Source: Chloroflexota bacterium (GTDB lineage: Bacteria; Chloroflexota; Anaerolineae; Aggregatilineales; J027). Taken from it: DNA of 64,000 nt. The notes beneath the pieces are model-generated. The model worked only from the letters and a program-made list of their open reading frames with translations, was not told the origin of the DNA and did no database searches. This document shows, in pieces, positions 23,722-38,065 of this stretch; position 1 is the stretch's first letter; each line of letters begins with the position of its first letter. The translations under genes were made by a program, and so were the position numbers. The stretch covers positions 37,227-101,226 of the forward strand of contig JACRBG010000011.1 in NCBI GenBank assembly GCA_016234595.1, given 5' to 3'.

Positions 23722-24188
23722 CTTTATGACCTCCTAAAAACTGTAACCTTTAATTTTTTCTCTTTTATATCATGCAACAAATTTACTGTCTTAGGCCTGC
23801 CAAACTTGTGCCATGTTGGAAATCTCATCCATATAGACCTATTTGGGTGGGTGGCATAGCTTGTTTATTGAGGATGAGAAAAAAAGTAGACGAGTGCCCA
23901 CAGTGAAACAGACCCTGAACCGCTAACACGCGCTCCCCATCAGGGTCTTGCCCACTTGTTAGAGTCAATAGCCTATCCACAACGATCACAATTGGAGATT
24001 TCGATAACGACTGCCTAGAGAGGGGTTTGGCAGGGAGAGTTTTGAATTCCCCCTGCACCATCTGAAGTCAGCCATTACCAGTGACTTCAATCGGTAGTGT
24101 ACCACACCTTTTGGTACAGCCGATTTTTGAAGGAATCACTGAAGGCAAATCGCAAGTGTATTCGGGGTTTACCATCAGGAGGATAGCT

Positions 24189-25019
24189 ATGACCCCAGTT
24201 TTTGTACTCACCAATCATAAGGGCGGCGTGGGGAAATCTACGTCCGCGACAAATATCGCGTTTGGCATCGCACAGATGCTGGCGCAGTTCGGCGTTGCCA
24301 ATCATCGGGTGCTGTTGATTGACACCGACAGTCAAGGGCACGCCACCCTCGTCACTACCAGTCGGAATGATTTCGGACGTGAGGATAGTCTGTATACCGT
24401 ACTCAATGCTGATCGCAAAGATGCCGCCACTGTATTGAAGCAATGTATTGTGGCAAGCGAATGGGACGCCGATTTGCATGTCCTCCCCGCCTCCCCACTA
24501 CTCGAAGCCGCCGAACGGGAATTAATCGCCGTGCCCGGTGCGCCCTACCGATTATCAGAACCCCTCGCTCAGCTTGCCAGTCACTATGCAGCCATCGTAA
24601 TTGACACCCGCCCTTCCTTCTCCCTACTCACTGAAATGAGTCTAATCGCCGCGACGGATGCGCTTATCCCAATTGAGCCGCGTTATCTAGAAACAGTCGG
24701 TTTGGAATCAGTGGTCAATAAGATTGAGTCCATTCGGCAGGGCTGGCGTTGTCCGGATTTGAAGGTGAGTGGCATCGTCGTCACCAAACTCGACAAACGC
24801 ATGAAGGGCCATGTCGAGATGGTCGAAAGCCTCAAAGCCCATCCGGTACTGGGGCGGTTGCTGTGTGGGGTCATTCCGGCCAACGAAGCAGTGGCCTATG
24901 CCCATCATGCCCATAAAAGCGTGTATGCGTACAACCCCGAATGTCCCGCCAGCCAAGCCTATGCGGTGTTGGCAGCCCGTCTCATCAAAAAAACAATGGC
25001 GATTAGGGGAGGTGCGTGA
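24189..25019 (+). CDS. parA: ParA family partition ATPase
   Basis: Deviant Walker A KGGVGKST, LIDTDSQG, VIDTRPS; ATG 24189 after AGGAGG. Confidence 0.93.
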   Translation: MTPVFVLTNHKGGVGKSTSATNIAFGIAQMLAQFGVANHRVLLIDTDSQGHATLVTTSRNDFGREDSLYTVLNADRKDAATVLKQCIVASEWDADLHVLPASPLLEAAERELIAVPGAPYRLSEPLAQLASHYAAIVIDTRPSFSLLTEMSLIAATDALIPIEPRYLETVGLESVVNKIESIRQGWRCPDLKVSGIVVTKLDKRMKGHVEMVESLKAHPVLGRLLCGVIPANEAVAYAHHAHKSVYAYNPECPASQAYAVLAARLIKKTMAIRGGA

Positions 25020-26224
25020 TGGCAAAAAAAGCCGATACTCCCAATCGGATTAATGCCCTGCTGCAAGATGTGGGGCAGATGATGATTTTGAATGCTGATC
25101 CCGCTGAACGGTTGGATGATAGTCAACTCCGTGTTGAAAACCTGCCCATCCAACTGGTGCGGCCTGATCCGGCCCAACCCCGGCGAGTGTTGCCCGAAGG
25201 GATTTACCAAGCGTTTCACCAAGAACACCTCACGCCGTATCAAGCCCTGAAGGAACTTGTTCAATTGGTGCAAATCGCGGCGCGGCAAAAGGGGCGACCC
25301 TTTACCCATGTGCTCGATTTACTGCCGAATCCGAATGACGAAACTGAGGCGGAAGTCACGACGACACTCTTGCCAGAGGAAACTCTGCTGCGGGATTTGG
25401 TCAACTTGGCCGTGACGATTCGGGATGATGGTCAGGTCAATCCGCTGACCGTGGTGGATAAATCCGAAGGGGTGAGCCACATCTATCAAATTGAGACAGG
25501 CGAACGGCGCTACTGGGCGACATGGCTGATGATGGAATTCCTACCGGGGTATCAAGGCAATGGTTCTATCCCTTGCATCATTGTCCCCTCCAATCGAGCC
25601 TCGGTTTTTCGTCAGGCTAAAGAGAACACCTCGCGGGCTGGTCTGAACGCCATTGCGATGGCACGGCAGGCGGCACTGTTGTTGTTAGCTGTACATGGTA
25701 TTGTGCCACCCCTTGAAGGGCCAATCTCCAACGATTTCTATCGTCTGGCTCTCGAATTTACCCTGAGAGATAAGCGCGACTATGCCAACGATATTCTTGC
25801 CGCGATGGGTGGAATTACCCGTAGCTACTTCAGCTACTACAAATCCTTGTTGCGCCTTTCTGATGACGCGCTGGAATTGGCGGATCGTAACAGCATTGAT
25901 GAAAAGAAACTCCGCTATGTTGTTTCACTGCCGGTGGAAGCTCAGGTTGAAATGGTGCGCCAGATCATAGACTTTGGCTTGACTAGTGCGCAGGTGAAAG
26001 AACTCTGCTCAGATGAAGCAGGGCTGGATAAGTCAGTGGATGATCAATCTCCTAAAAAAGCAAAGCAATTAATCAAACTCATCCGCGCCACAATGGACAC
26101 CACCCCAGCCCAATTTGCACAGGCTTTAGTTGATCAAGAAAAAACCGTGCACATGGCAAAAGCTCGCCTCAATGAGCTTCGTGAGCTGTTTGACGAGGTA
26201 GAGGAATTTCTGAGCAGGCAATAA
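25019..26224 (+). CDS. parB: ParB family partition protein (CTPase N-domain)
   Basis: VRPDPAQPRR, GQVNPLTV, IETGERRYWA (GxxR motif); coupled to the parA stop. Confidence 0.85.
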   Translation: MAKKADTPNRINALLQDVGQMMILNADPAERLDDSQLRVENLPIQLVRPDPAQPRRVLPEGIYQAFHQEHLTPYQALKELVQLVQIAARQKGRPFTHVLDLLPNPNDETEAEVTTTLLPEETLLRDLVNLAVTIRDDGQVNPLTVVDKSEGVSHIYQIETGERRYWATWLMMEFLPGYQGNGSIPCIIVPSNRASVFRQAKENTSRAGLNAIAMARQAALLLLAVHGIVPPLEGPISNDFYRLALEFTLRDKRDYANDILAAMGGITRSYFSYYKSLLRLSDDALELADRNSIDEKKLRYVVSLPVEAQVEMVRQIIDFGLTSAQVKELCSDEAGLDKSVDDQSPKKAKQLIKLIRATMDTTPAQFAQALVDQEKTVHMAKARLNELRELFDEVEEFLSRQ

Positions 26225-26248
26225 ATTGTTGACCCGGGTCAACAATTT
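26223..26248. promoter_or_regulatory. Perfect 26-bp palindrome, candidate parS centromere
   Basis: aaattgttgacccgggtcaacaattt, no spacer, directly at the parB stop codon. Confidence 0.7.
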
Positions 26249-26261
26249 TGAGGAGCAACCC

Positions 26262-26366
26262 ATGACTAACCGATCACGTGACCCGCCGAAAAAAGAAAAA
26301 CCGCCTTACCAGTTAGGGCAGGCGGACAGGTCAGGTCAATCAATTAATCAAAATCAATTGCAATAA
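26262..26366 (+). CDS. 34-aa leader ORF upstream of the replication protein
   Basis: GAGGAG RBS at about 26250-26255; MTNRSRDPPKKEKPPYQLGQADRSGQSINQNQLQ*. Confidence 0.5.
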   Translation: MTNRSRDPPKKEKPPYQLGQADRSGQSINQNQLQ

Positions 26367-26375
26367 ACCGTAGCA
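26288..26375 (-). ncRNA. Predicted counter-transcribed antisense RNA (ctRNA-like, about 85 nt)
   Basis: Minus-strand promoter TTGCAG-N17-TACAAT and terminator CCGCCU-N13-AGGCGG-UUUUUCUUUUUU. Confidence 0.65.
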
Positions 26376-26381
26376 TGTTTC

Positions 26382-26410
26382 ATTGTAATTGGTTCGTGAC
26401 CTGTCTGCAA
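26382..26410 (-). promoter_or_regulatory. sigma70-type promoter of the antisense RNA
   Basis: -35 TTGCAG (26410-26405), 17-nt spacer, -10 TACAAT (26387-26382). Confidence 0.65.
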
Positions 26411-26465
26411 GCACCGTCAACCACTATTTGACATTTGAAAACTTAACCCGGACAGGAGCAACACT

Positions 26466-28814
26466 ATGGCTAGTGTGTCACAGGAATCGCTGATCGTTCA
26501 GGCCGCCCAATCCAGTAGCCTCTTGGATGCGGCATTGATGTATGCTCGTTTAGGGATGAGTGTTATCCCCCTGAAAGGGAAACGCCCTTCACTGTCTAGT
26601 TGGACGCAACTTCAACAAGTTCGCGCCGATGCCGTTGTAATTCATCGCTGGCAGCGGAATGGGCTGCTGCATAACGTGGGCATCGTCTGTGGAGCAGCCT
26701 CACAAAATCTGGTTGTTTTGGATACCGATGGTGCAGCCAGCTATCCAGCTTTTGCTGCTATGTTCCCTAAACTAGCGGAGACCTATACCGTTGCGACGGG
26801 CAGCGGCAAAGGCCACCACGTCTATTTCTATGTGGAAAAACTGCCTGAGAGTATCAAGGCTATGGGTCTGCCGATTGGCAATCTTGAATTGTGCGCGAAT
26901 GGGCGACAGGTGGTCGCTCCGCCAAGTTTGCATCCAATCACGGGTAACCCCTATCGGGTGCATAAGGCCTTGGATATTCTGCGGGTCGAAACGCTTAATG
27001 AATTGGCTGAGTGGATTAAGTCGTTCAAGGCCAAACCTGCGTTTGCACCAGTCCACTTTTTGCCAGTGTCACCACATGATTCTGCCAAATTGAATCCAAA
27101 GGTAATGGAGGAAATTGAACGACATTTTCTGCGACAGGGGTATCGAGAAGTCGGCGAATGGCTGCATGGGCCGTGTATTTATCCCCATCGGCATCAGCAT
27201 GGCGACCGCAACCCTTCCTTTGGATTCAATCGCTTCAGCGGATTTGGCTCGTGTTTTGTGTGTGGCACGATTCTGGCGAAAGACATCTGTGCAGCGGTTG
27301 GGATTGATGTCAGTGTGCTAGGCGGGTTGGTGGAAAAGTCTTTTAACACCAACCCCCATCACCAGCCCACAGCCGTTAGGCTGTCTTTACCACCTACGGA
27401 ACCTCCGATTCCAAGTGAAACCAAGCTATCTAGTATTGCATTGCCACCAAGCACCCCGCCACCTTCTGAACCGAGTCAGGGATTTGCGATGAATGATCTC
27501 AAACTCCCAGAGTGGCTCAAACTCTATGTGGAATGGGCCGGGGCGACGGGTAATCAGACACCGTTATCTTTCCATCTTGCGGCGGGATTGTGGCTGTTGT
27601 CGGTCGCGGTGGGGCGACGTTTGTATGGTGCTGCCCCTTGGGGAGTGAAGATTTTCCCCAATCTGTATTTGATGCTCATCGCGGCGACGACCTATTATCG
27701 CAAATCCACCGCTTATAAATTGGCGGAGGGCATCGCACATGAGGCCATTCCACATATGCTCATGCCAACACCGGGTTCACCCGAACGTTTTCAAGAGGCT
27801 CTGGCGGGCCAACTACCGGGTAATTTTGACAAGCTCAATCCAACCGAACAAGAACTTTTTCGCAAGGCACAGCCGTTTGCAGCCCAGCGCGGGTTGCTTA
27901 AGGATGAGGTCGCTGGATTATTTGGGGTCATCAACAAGCGGGATTATATGGTCGGCATGAAAGATTTGTTGATGGAACTCTATGACTGCCCTGATCGCTC
28001 TAGTAAAGAAACACAGGCGGGAGTCACGATTGTTGAGAAGGCGGCTTTATCCATCTTGGGCGTGACGACTCCGGCAGGTTTGGCGGCTGGGGTGAGTGAG
28101 GCGGATTGGGCGAATGGCTTGCTGGTACGCTTTGCCTTGATTACACCTGAAACAGATTATGCCGAGCGCCCCGCAGCCATCGCCTTTCAGTCACCACCAC
28201 CGAAGCTCATTGAGGGCTTACGTCGTTTACACGAGCGCCTGCCAAATCCTGTCCGGACAGAACGCGGATTGACCCCACCGAGTGCCCTGCAATTGGATGT
28301 CACCTGCTGGCGTGAATGTCAAAATTATGGCGATCATCTGCGCCGCCTGTGTGCACCGCAGCAAGACACTGAATTAGATGAGCGACTCAAGGGCGTCTAT
28401 GGGCGGCTGCATGTCCAAGCCTTCAAACTTGCTACCCTGATGGCTGCCTTAGATTGGCTAGATACCGACACCTCGGCGCCAACACTCACAGTTGACCATT
28501 GGGTGATGGGGGAGACTATGGCTGAAACATGGCGTATGAGCGCTCATCGTTTGCTTGAACAAATGGATCGGCGGGGTGAGGCTAGTCATGAACGTCGCCA
28601 GCAAGATACATTGTTACGGGCGATTCGACAGGCAGGGGCTGAAGGGGCGAGTCTACGGGTGTTATATCGTAATCTCCACCTGACTGCCCAACGTGCGCGA
28701 TTGTTGGCCCAAGAATTAGCGCGTGCAGGCTTGGTGGTGGAACGGCGTTTTAGTGGCATTGAGTGGTATGTTGCTAGTGAATATGCCACAGATGAGACTC
28801 CTGCCATCGGGTGA
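26466..28814 (+). CDS. Putative replication initiator: bifunctional primase-polymerase + Zn-binding domain + DUF3987/YfjI-like NTPase + winged helix
   Basis: N-term LGMSVIPLK, NVGIVCG, LVVLDTD, TGSGKGHHVYF, QVVAPPSLH; CIYPHRH...DRNPSF...CFVC; NLYLMLIA....RKST and GLLKDE. Confidence 0.82.
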   Translation: MASVSQESLIVQAAQSSSLLDAALMYARLGMSVIPLKGKRPSLSSWTQLQQVRADAVVIHRWQRNGLLHNVGIVCGAASQNLVVLDTDGAASYPAFAAMFPKLAETYTVATGSGKGHHVYFYVEKLPESIKAMGLPIGNLELCANGRQVVAPPSLHPITGNPYRVHKALDILRVETLNELAEWIKSFKAKPAFAPVHFLPVSPHDSAKLNPKVMEEIERHFLRQGYREVGEWLHGPCIYPHRHQHGDRNPSFGFNRFSGFGSCFVCGTILAKDICAAVGIDVSVLGGLVEKSFNTNPHHQPTAVRLSLPPTEPPIPSETKLSSIALPPSTPPPSEPSQGFAMNDLKLPEWLKLYVEWAGATGNQTPLSFHLAAGLWLLSVAVGRRLYGAAPWGVKIFPNLYLMLIAATTYYRKSTAYKLAEGIAHEAIPHMLMPTPGSPERFQEALAGQLPGNFDKLNPTEQELFRKAQPFAAQRGLLKDEVAGLFGVINKRDYMVGMKDLLMELYDCPDRSSKETQAGVTIVEKAALSILGVTTPAGLAAGVSEADWANGLLVRFALITPETDYAERPAAIAFQSPPPKLIEGLRRLHERLPNPVRTERGLTPPSALQLDVTCWRECQNYGDHLRRLCAPQQDTELDERLKGVYGRLHVQAFKLATLMAALDWLDTDTSAPTLTVDHWVMGETMAETWRMSAHRLLEQMDRRGEASHERRQQDTLLRAIRQAGAEGASLRVLYRNLHLTAQRARLLAQELARAGLVVERRFSGIEWYVASEYATDETPAIG

Positions 28815-28816
28815 AT

Positions 28817-29003
28817 GCGACAAATGCGACACACGCGACATGCGACAGTGCGACAGCGATAAAAAATATGGCTTTGGCTATTATCATGCTCACGGCGTTT
28901 TCCGGAATGACACTGAAGAAAATGCTATGAAGCACCATAAGTCTATATCGCTATGAGATATATTTGTCGCGCTGTCACGTGTCGCATCTGTCGCGTTTGT
29001 CGC
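28817..29003. repeat. Two inverted arrays of GCGACA hexamers, candidate replication origin
   Basis: GCGACA at 28817, 28826, 28835, 28842, 28850; TGTCGC at 28965, 28980, 28989, 28998 and TGTCAC at 28973; about 110-bp spacer. Confidence 0.75.
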
Positions 29004-36346: not shown

Positions 36347-38065
36347 ATGGAGCTTACTCAATACATTCGTCTTTTCAGAAAGTGGTTATGGCTTATTCTT
36401 TTGGTAGCGTTTTTGGGTGGAAGTAGTAGCTTTATCTTCCGCAGCCGCCAAGAAAAAACCTATCAGGCACAAGCCACCATTTTTGTTGGTAGTTTCCGCG
36501 AAGACCCCAATCCGGGTAGTGGTGAAATTAACACAGGTACCCAACTGGCAACGACCTATGCAGCGTTAGCCACGACCTATAGCATTGCCCAAGCTGCGGT
36601 CGAGGCTGGAGGATTTCCAATTTCTCCTGATGGCCTGCGCGGCAGTATTACGACCAGCATTGTTCCTGATACCTCTCTTTTGGTTTTGAGTGTTACCTAT
36701 ACCGACCCTATCTTAGCTGCGGATATGGCGAATCAGGTTGCAGAACAGCTTATTCTGAATAGCCCAACAAATTTGACATCCGACCAGCAAAGCCAACTTG
36801 ATTTAGCCAACGCTGAAATATCACGGCTGACAGGTGAGCTTGAAAAAGCCCGTCAAGACTTGAATGTGATAGATGGTCAAATATCAACTGCAACTGATCC
36901 TGAGGAAATTCAAAGTTTAACTGATCGTCGGGACACGTTAGTAGCCCAAATTACCGATATTTCTTCAACCATTGCGCAATATTCTAGTACCGTCGAGAAT
37001 TTGCGTCGGCGGACCAATTCCCTCGAAATCATTGAGCGGGCACGTGTACCTAGTAGCCCCACTGGTACAGGAACACTTCAAGTTACTTTACTTGGTGCAA
37101 TGGTAGGAGCAGCTTTGGCTTTTGGGGCAGTTCTACTCATTGAATATTTGAATGACACCATTAAAGTGCCGGAGGAAGTAACCCAACTTATATCCGTGCC
37201 AGTTTTAGGGACAATTTTTCGGTTTGGGAAATCGAGCGAAGGCTATTCAAAACGCTTGATTACGTATTTACAGCCGAACTCACCTGTCTCAGAAAGTTAT
37301 CGTTCTCTCCGCACAAACCTCCTCTATACTGCACAAAATGGCTCAAAACAAGCCTATATTGTGACGAGCCCCGGCCCAGAGGAGGGCAAGTCTGTTACTG
37401 CTGCCAACCTAGCTGTGGTGATGGCAACTGCCGGACTACAAGTATTGTTGGTAGATGCAGATTTGCGCCGACCCAAAGTTCATGAAATCTTCGATTTGAA
37501 GAACGAAATTGGTTTAACGACGCTGTTGTTCGCCGATCCAACAAATCCCTCAAAACCTTCAGACGTAGATGCTGAAAAGAGTAACGCCGAATTCGCTACA
37601 CGGTTACGTCAATGTATTCAAAGCACATCTATCCCACGCCTGCGTGTCATCACTAGTGGTTTTATTCCCTCTAATCCCGCAGAAATTTTGGGATCGGCTT
37701 TGATGAAACGTTGGTTTGATCTCTTTCAATCTTCTACCAATATTGATGTTATAATATTCGATACACCACCTGTGTTGGTGGTAGCAGATAGTGCCGTTTT
37801 AGCTGCGACTATCAATGTTCCAATTTTGCTGGTTCTCCAAGCAGGGCGAACACGCCGGGGTGCAGCCTTACGCACTAAGGCACAACTGGATACGTTGGGA
37901 GCCGAGTTGGTGGGGGTTTCGTTGAATCAACTGAATCCTGCCGAACAAAATTATGGCTATGGCTATGGTGGTGGCTATTACTACTACTATGCCAACTCCG
38001 AAAACGGACAAGGTCAACTTTCGGCGTGGAGGCGTCTAGTCAATCGTTTTAAAAAGCCCAATTAG
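36347..38065 (+). CDS. Polysaccharide co-polymerase / tyrosine autokinase (Wzc/CapB-like)
   Basis: Wzz-like N-term, SPGPEEGKS, DADLRRP, IFDTPP, Tyr cluster YGYGYGGGYYYYY. Confidence 0.93.
   Translation: MELTQYIRLFRKWLWLILLVAFLGGSSSFIFRSRQEKTYQAQATIFVGSFREDPNPGSGEINTGTQLATTYAALATTYSIAQAAVEAGGFPISPDGLRGSITTSIVPDTSLLVLSVTYTDPILAADMANQVAEQLILNSPTNLTSDQQSQLDLANAEISRLTGELEKARQDLNVIDGQISTATDPEEIQSLTDRRDTLVAQITDISSTIAQYSSTVENLRRRTNSLEIIERARVPSSPTGTGTLQVTLLGAMVGAALAFGAVLLIEYLNDTIKVPEEVTQLISVPVLGTIFRFGKSSEGYSKRLITYLQPNSPVSESYRSLRTNLLYTAQNGSKQAYIVTSPGPEEGKSVTAANLAVVMATAGLQVLLVDADLRRPKVHEIFDLKNEIGLTTLLFADPTNPSKPSDVDAEKSNAEFATRLRQCIQSTSIPRLRVITSGFIPSNPAEILGSALMKRWFDLFQSSTNIDVIIFDTPPVLVVADSAVLAATINVPILLVLQAGRTRRGAALRTKAQLDTLGAELVGVSLNQLNPAEQNYGYGYGGGYYYYYANSENGQGQLSAWRRLVNRFKKPN

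Follow-up and report, generated by a model that had tools for sequence, protein, structure and literature searches.

Does the interval between the parB-like gene and the initiator gene rep of an uncultured member of the Anaerolineae encode a small RNA antisense to the rep mRNA leader? The question arises at contig JACRBG010000011.1 of the Chloroflexota assembly GCA_016234595.1, of which we analyzed positions 37,227 to 101,226, a stretch of 64,000 nucleotides (nt) referred to here as the window; all coordinates below are window coordinates. A preliminary description had predicted, from the letters alone, an RNA of about 85 nt on the minus strand between parB and rep. Based on comparative sequence analysis, we conclude that a counter-transcribed RNA (ctRNA) of this size, position and polarity is probably real. 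The sequence family to which it belongs is new, while the kind of regulator is well known.

Promoter and terminator of the predicted RNA

The predicted RNA occupies 26289–26376 on the minus strand (approximately 82–88 nt) and is composed of a variable 5′ body, a terminator hairpin and a U-tail. Its putative promoter consists of the −35 element TTGCAG (26405–26410) and the −10 element TACAAT (26382–26387) with a spacer of 17 nt. The −10 box is followed by GAAACAUG, and purines that could serve as start site are found at 26376 and 26374, in agreement with the start near 26375 proposed earlier. The body between the −10 box and the hairpin is A+U-rich. The hairpin itself (26301–26325; CCGCCU GCC CUAACU GGU A AGGCGG) has nine pairs and one bulge, and continues into the U-tract UUUUUCUUUUUU (26289–26300), which is T-rich in all relatives. 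The hairpin energy is −12.9 to −13.6 kcal/mol, with TTTTCTTTT as tail, and the predicted RNA as a whole folds at −23.4 kcal/mol (z = −2.6).

The tRNA genes of the host genome provide a reference for these elements. Regions upstream of the tRNA genes score at least 9/12 against TTGACA-N16-18-TATAAT in 36 of 45 cases, and a hairpin with a T-tract follows 25 of the 45 genes, compared with 29 of 1500 random 120-mers (1.9%), which indicates that the host uses canonical promoters and terminators. At −13.6 kcal/mol, the hairpin in the window lies within the range of the host tRNA terminators and qualifies as an intrinsic terminator; it exceeds chance and is typical of the host. The terminator of the preliminary description (CCGCCU/AGGCGG with U-tract, 26325–26289) is confirmed both in sequence and in host-typical energy. 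A generic scan flagged neither the minus-strand promoter nor the terminator, the latter because the bulge in the hairpin falls outside the scan rules. An Rfam cmscan of positions 25000–27500 with E values up to 5 returned two chance matches and no ctRNA family, and a metagenome pattern scan for the hairpin core returned three chance matches in G+C-rich coding DNA and no relatives.

Close relatives of the locus form a type-1 set of 12 loci with a shared parB–leader–rep layout (alignment A3), which represent at least five sequence lineages and six of which were added through exact-protein look-ups; the type-1 Rep proteins are 70–86% identical to that of the window. The TACAAT box, the GAAA that follows it and the TTGC of the −35 element are invariant in all 12 loci, the spacer is 17 or 18 nt throughout, and the hairpin core and T-rich tail are kept in every locus. 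Between these fixed elements, the RNA body differs in length by up to 14 nt, and the predicted RNA in the relatives measures 72–74 nt. Since promoter and terminator are kept together in every relative examined, the observation exceeds chance. The −35 variants TTGCAG, TTGCGG and TTGCCG score 7.7, 9.3 and 11.7 bits, respectively, with a promoter matrix trained on 30 tRNA promoters of the host genome, each ending 8–30 nt before the gene. A covariance model of the type-1 unit (R1) finds matches in the window's genus only, in five of six sampled genomes including the window's own and with up to two copies per genome, so that type-1 diversity is limited.

The arrangement in distant paralogues

We then consider the whole Rep family, represented by 38 loci with a homologous rep, in which we scanned for a promoter of at least 7 bits followed by a terminator T-tract starting 35–110 nt past the end of the −10 box. 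The leader contains such a promoter–terminator unit on the minus strand in 33 of the 38 loci, with 61–76 nt from the −10 end to the T-tract, and on the plus strand in none (0/38, same threshold). Leaders of the distant paralogues, type 2, carry the promoter-like site T[GA]GACA-17-TATCCT, which scores 10.6–12.4 bits, and a CCGCCAG...CUGGCGG hairpin. Relative to a GACAG motif shared by both types, the type-2 −10 box is located 3 nt further away than that of type 1 and the −35 box 3–4 nt further downstream, and a spacing of 17–18 nt is upheld by the different pair of hexamers. The layout is kept with different hexamers, and what is conserved therefore appears to be a function-like arrangement, and not sequence alone.

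The gene upstream of a type-2 leader encodes a CopG-family ribbon-helix-helix protein. The host has a type-2 paralogue of its own on another contig, with a Rep 62% identical to the window's; this second module (genome G000, contig C25:169266-171662; loci L002 and L067) comprises the CopG-family gene, the CCGCCAG hairpin and the Rep paralogue, and has a minus-strand promoter-like site, TGGACA-18-TATCCT. A covariance model of the type-2 unit (R2) matched 6 of 19 genomes in a family-level search. In a class-wide search the window's own genome was the only match, a scarcity that is probably due to the few candidates scored per genome.

Strand asymmetry and the structured rep leader

The DNA that would encode the antisense RNA and its promoter also encodes the rep mRNA leader, and a second explanation for its conservation must be weighed. 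The most prominent structure on the plus strand is a long hairpin (SL-II, 26322–26408), the 5′ half of which is the predicted antisense target and the 3′ half of which coincides with the antisense promoter DNA. Its basal helix pairs 26322–26333 with 26397–26408 and shows compensatory changes (GACAGG/CCUGUC versus GACAGA/UCUGUC) as well as clade-specific extensions, up to 15 pairs in locus L007; the apical helix pairs 26347–26356 with the stretch that holds the −10 box. Some plus-strand pairs of SL-II are G·U and would turn into A·C mismatches on the minus strand. The plus-strand fold is also the more stable one in 11 of 12 type-1 and 25 of 32 type-2 loci, L059 being a locus where the minus strand is favored. 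Based on this stability and the G·U pairs, we interpret SL-II as a folded part of the rep mRNA leader. The region of the SL-II 5′ arm contains a tandem duplication of 5 nt, AGGTC-AGGTC (26329–26338), that is missing in a close relative's contig from run X6.

The leader also contains an open reading frame (ORF) of 34 codons (26262–26366, plus strand) preceded by a ribosome-binding site, GAGGAG, at 26250–26255. This site and the start codon are separated by 6 nt of variable sequence in every type-1 locus. At its N-terminus the encoded peptide reads R-[DGA]-P-P-x-K-x-K, which is conserved in the 12 type-1 loci, and nucleotide changes in the ORF fall mostly in third positions (CGT/CGC, and CCG/CCA at both proline codons). 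The ORF is 17–59 amino acids long, and past the A-tract the frames diverge and the later frame is not conserved. From this pattern, we take it that the leader ORF is translated and that only the first dozen or so codons matter; that ribosomes might pause at the two prolines and then at the AAA lysine codons is speculation. A programmed −1 frameshift at A-AAA-AAG before the hairpin was considered and rejected, as the heptamer is out of the leader-ORF frame and not conserved. At the distal end of the leader, the ribosome-binding region of rep, GGACAGGAGC with the ATG at 26466 (26450–26468, plus strand), includes an ACAGGAG that is invariant in all 12 type-1 loci; the preceding base is G in 11 of them and A in L066. 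The same GACAGG occurs in the 5′ arm of SL-II, and its complement CCUGUC in the 3′ arm.

These features could mean that there is no antisense RNA at all, and that the conserved blocks make up a cis-acting plus-strand leader (peptide, small hairpin and long hairpin) that controls rep translation, with the minus-strand motifs as by-products. This explanation is consistent with a long hairpin that is real and favored on the plus strand, a leader ORF that appears to be translated, a promoter score in the chance range and an A-tract that doubles as lysine codons. Several observations argue against it. First, the T-tract is found on the minus-strand side of the short hairpin in all lineages, and near-identical loci differ by a single base in the length of the A/T-tract, so that the reading frame on the plus strand shifts; selection for lysine codons would not be expected to allow this. 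Second, the short hairpin is better suited to the minus strand. Column-wise covariation of the terminator core is uninformative, because five core pairs are invariant within type 1, and for this reason we use the G·U asymmetry across both types: among 34 distinct versions, the hairpin has 27 G·U pairs as minus-strand RNA versus 7 as plus-strand RNA, and the minus-strand fold has the lower energy in 23 of the 34 (for example −18.9 versus −13.0 in L012, and −17.6 versus −11.1 in L014). Third, the 5′ strand of the apical stem of SL-II varies by clade (CAAUUGCAAUAA, CUAUUGCAAUGA, UUACGAGAAA and CUACAUGAAA), while its 3′ strand, UUUCAUUGUA, is invariant in the type-1 loci. A helix alone would let both strands drift, and the one-sided invariance suggests an additional sequence constraint on TTTCATTGTA, as a −10 box would impose. 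Finally, a cis-acting leader would not account for promoter–terminator units that are confined to the minus strand and differ in hexamers between leader types. We consider it unlikely that the cis-acting leader alone explains the locus.

The overall pattern is the one expected if the short hairpin acts in a minus-strand transcript and the long hairpin in the rep mRNA. The conservation of hexamers and spacing, the polarity of the U-tract, the G·U asymmetry and the strand bias in the family scan together uphold the central proposal of the preliminary description, namely a minus-strand RNA complementary to the rep leader.

A proposed mechanism for the control of rep

We infer the transcription of the RNA, the repression of rep and the mode of that repression from these comparisons, and propose the following sequence of events. 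RNA polymerase with the housekeeping sigma factor would initiate at approximately 26376–26374 from the weak but conserved TTGCAG-N17-TACAAT and would stop at the intrinsic terminator (hairpin 26325–26301, U-tract to approximately 26289) to release an untranslated RNA of about 85 nt. The rep leader would be read through from parAB, since no plus-strand promoter of at least 7 bits is found between parB and the leader; for the same reason, a separate leader–rep transcript from a plus-strand promoter of its own was ruled out. The predicted RNA is fully complementary to the rep leader over codons 10–34 of the leader ORF, the first small hairpin and the 5′ half of SL-II. Pairing would probably begin at the complementary hairpin loops and would hinder translation of the leader ORF and open the long hairpin, so that Rep synthesis falls. 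Since the dose of the RNA would follow the copy number of its gene, it would control copy number by negative feedback and would also determine the incompatibility of the parA–parB–rep replicon.

How opening of SL-II might lower Rep synthesis can be envisaged in at least two ways. In one route, the freed 3′ arm of SL-II (CCUGUC) would pair with the rep ribosome-binding site (GACAGGAG); ribonuclease cleavage of the RNA duplex is an equally open route. When the target is blocked in folding calculations, the predicted accessibility of the ribosome-binding site falls from 0.54 to 0.24 in the window, from 0.44 to 0.33 in L007 and from 0.45 to 0.42 in L027. Such masking by the 3′ arm is thus one possible route, for which the folds are clear in the window only.

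Two further modes of control were also weighed. The preliminary description had likened the RNA to antisense RNAs of the pT181/pIP501 type, and as a mechanism this likeness is not borne out: attenuation of that type is not supported, as the family scan gave no plus-strand promoter–terminator unit in any of the 38 leaders, and constrained folds and inspection by eye of the window and its relatives revealed no conserved plus-strand hairpin with T-tract before the rep ribosome-binding site. A T-run precedes rep in some relatives, where it has no adjacent hairpin, and it is missing from the window. Direct translational coupling of the tap type known from plasmid R1 also appears unlikely, because the end of the leader ORF varies from 30 to 190 nt before rep.

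Evidence against the antisense RNA

Several findings weigh against the antisense RNA, or against the route proposed for it. The promoter had been described as near-consensus; its motifs, position and spacer hold up, but the −35 element shares only 3 of 6 bases with TTGACA. With 7.7 bits, the promoter falls below every one of the tRNA promoters (11.1–19.9 bits), and sites of at least 7.7 bits are expected by chance about 0.39 times per 250 nt on both strands. It ranks fourth among six sites of at least 7 bits in 3.2 kb, and the score by itself proves nothing. The promoters of copy-control RNAs are usually strong, and that of the window is weak. The promoter DNA doubles as one arm of the conserved plus-strand hairpin, so that part of its conservation has another explanation, and the 45 loci studied are mutually related, which means that the counts given above are not independent events. 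With regard to the route, accessibility of the ribosome-binding site rises upon blocking of the target in L004, L005 and L006, and L066 has no complementarity to the ribosome-binding site.

The public RNA data belong in the same balance. The usable runs are available as Logan contigs, which are unstranded, derive from relatives and are one read long or slightly longer; the runs are labelled RNA-Seq or metatranscriptomic, and DNA carry-over is possible. Such contigs from relatives cover the leader at 26289–26432, 26294–26445 and 26451–26583, with similar coverage on L006 and L016, and this coverage counts in favor of the reading. They extend past the predicted start, to 26432–26445, and reveal no discrete 85-nt species, which counts against it. 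Contigs from unstranded runs neither show nor exclude a small RNA, and their ends do not mark RNA ends.

The same contigs bear on a second alternative, an antisense RNA of approximately 140–190 nt that would start nearer to or inside the 5′ end of rep, include the complement of the entire long hairpin and use the same terminator, with TTGCAG-N17-TACAAT as part of the RNA sequence and not as its promoter. Two of the contigs (26289–26432 and 26294–26445) fit such a transcript, and the long hairpin can form on the minus strand as well, with the more stable version in L059. These contigs are equally compatible with plus-strand mRNA, given their single-read length and lack of strand information. 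There is no conserved promoter-like site upstream on the minus strand, where conservation of the leader is at its lowest (26412–26449), and the long hairpin is the weaker on the minus strand in most type-1 and type-2 loci, as noted above. We regard the longer RNA as quite unlikely.

A third alternative, that the GACAGG/CCTGTC inverted repeats and the hairpins act as DNA, either as Rep or ParB operators or as a single-strand initiation site for the Prim-Pol, draws on the repeats that follow rep (GCGACA/TGTCGC; nGACA in relatives) and on the GACA in both arms of SL-II and at the rep ribosome-binding site, but is very unlikely. The leader core stays the same in clades whose repeats carry different prefixes, the arms are lengthened by complementary sequence particular to each clade and accommodate G·U pairs in the manner of RNA helices, and the T-tract is left unexplained.

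Replicon setting

The antisense RNA would be part of a compact partition-plus-replication module (24081–29003). On the plus strand, a parA-like ATPase gene (24081–25019) and a parB-like gene (25016–26224) precede the leader and rep (26466–28814). The 782-residue Rep combines a Prim-Pol domain (PF09250, 1.7e-23) with DUF3987 (PF13148, 3.4e-11). Fusions of Prim-Pol and DUF3987 are known from mobile elements, and DUF3987 is a predicted helicase (PMC5862659). Directly 3′ of the parB stop codon lies a perfect 20-bp palindrome, TTGTTGACCCGGGTCAACAA (26226–26245), which occurs once in the 64-kb window and is a candidate parS-like site; its half-sites co-vary among relatives (GAC/GTC, GCC/GGC, ACC/GGT, and CAC/GTG in a contig from run X11). 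A second, different palindrome is found further upstream in at least L007 and L027, and a partial one in L059 and L066.

The candidate origin (28817–29003) starts right after the rep stop codon; in it, an AT-rich core of approximately 100 nt is flanked by five copies of GCGACA and five inverted copies, TGTC(G/A)C. The iteron arrangement is kept in relatives with different prefixes (CTGACA/CCGACA, GTGACA), and the array 3′ of rep is likely to be the origin. The leader (as GACAGG) and the rep ribosome-binding site share the GACA core of the iterons. Taken together, parA, parB, the palindrome, the Prim-Pol/DUF3987 rep and the iterons form a replicon context that supports the antisense-RNA reading.

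The contig of the window is 119 kb long and could be a plasmid, a chromid or chromosomal. A megablast search of a plasmid database gave no match to the locus, and tblastn found distant Prim-Pol domains in Sulfolobus and Rhizobium plasmids and nothing else. The host belongs to the Anaerolineae (Chloroflexota), and its Rep homologues come from metagenome-assembled genomes. A single genome can contain as many as three Prim-Pol/DUF3987 modules, whose antisense-RNA bodies diverge (L006, L007 and L028 in one; L008, L027 and L042 in another). Some type-2 modules are located on megabase contigs, and two nearly identical ones (L015 and L035) share a single 1.8-Mb contig, which suggests that part of the Rep family probably sits in integrated elements and not in free replicons.

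Relation to known control systems

The closest parallel in layout is the ctRNA of repABC plasmids (inc-alpha; p42d, pTi; Rfam ctRNA_p42d), to which the preliminary description had compared the locus in position and polarity. The order of a parA-like gene, a parB-like gene, a small RNA gene on the opposite strand and an initiator gene is the same, the RNA gene likewise has its own promoter and intrinsic terminator, and the expected role is again negative control of initiator synthesis and incompatibility. In repABC plasmids, the target leader forms one large stem-loop without the RNA, and upon pairing the leader refolds so that an intrinsic terminator ahead of the initiator gene replaces the large stem-loop (PMC3155836). 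The leader in the window also has a large stem-loop, but differs in that no inducible, conserved terminator is seen before rep and in that a translated-looking ORF lies beneath the RNA. The comparison therefore holds for the layout and not for the parts: the RNA has no Rfam match, the initiator is a Prim-Pol/DUF3987 protein and not RepC, the host is a member of the Anaerolineae and not an alphaproteobacterium, and the iteron array taken as candidate origin follows the initiator gene instead of lying within it.

A short ORF in the rep leader is a feature of other plasmids. In plasmid R1 (IncFII; CopA/CopT with tap) and in ColIb-P9 (Inc RNA with repY), an antisense RNA acts against a rep leader that bears a short ORF. 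The locus in the window resembles these systems in pairing an antisense RNA of approximately 70–90 nt with a leader that has a short translated ORF, in the position of the antisense promoter inside the leader and in RNA stem-loops that mirror those of the target. It differs in that the RNA stops 27 nt into the leader ORF and leaves the ORF's ribosome-binding site uncovered, in the variable distance from the ORF end to rep, and in the absence of sequence similarity.

Replicons of the pMV158/pLS1 type use CopG and RNA II to control repB, and RNA II overlaps the repB translation start. The type-2 modules, including the one on the host's other contig, are similar in combining a CopG-family gene, a minus-strand promoter–terminator unit and rep. 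In contrast, where type 2 has the ribbon-helix-helix gene, the window's module has parAB and a leader ORF, and its RNA is located approximately 90–175 nt upstream of the rep start.

The Synechocystis plasmid pSYSA encodes a 153-nt antisense RNA (asRNA1) and a small ORF (ssr7036) upstream of CyRepA1; its sense RNA is thought to prime replication, with a central role for RNase E (PMC9978351). Similar to the situation in the window, the antisense RNA starts at or just past the stop codon of the small ORF and complements its coding sequence, before a primase-helicase-type rep. The Rep proteins are unrelated. CyRepA1 has DUF3854 and a helicase domain; identity of the window's Rep with CyRepA1 was ruled out by BLASTP (E = 0.73) and by the lack of a match to NF042913 or any other NCBIfam model (595.8 bits for Slr7037).

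Implications for Chloroflexota replicons

That antisense RNAs control initiator synthesis in plasmids is textbook knowledge. What is new here is the setting, in which the repABC gene order is combined with a primase-polymerase initiator in uncultured Anaerolineae (Chloroflexota), and an RNA family outside Rfam is kept in two sequence types at dozens of loci from metagenome-assembled genomes. Copy-number control of this kind has not previously been described in the phylum or for this type of replicon.

A bolder extension, which we put forward tentatively and consider doubtful, is that the RNA is the founding member of an undescribed ctRNA family that controls Anaerolineae Prim-Pol/DUF3987 replicons, with its promoter in the 3′ arm of the target hairpin, with the RNA and a pausing leader peptide acting together, and with modules that define incompatibility groups. 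If so, the proline- and lysine-rich leader peptide would stall ribosomes at the landing site of the RNA, and Rep output would integrate copy number and translation status. Each genome's one to three divergent modules would then represent incompatibility groups of co-resident chromids, plasmids or excisable elements.

To our knowledge, there are no genetic tools for Chloroflexota, and we know of no characterized plasmid biology in the phylum. If the predicted RNA is confirmed, the locus would offer an example of a control-RNA promoter embedded in the regulatory hairpin of its own target, the RNA would be a marker that separates co-resident replicons in assembled genomes, and the minimal replicon of parAB, control RNA, rep and iterons could seed vectors for Chloroflexota.

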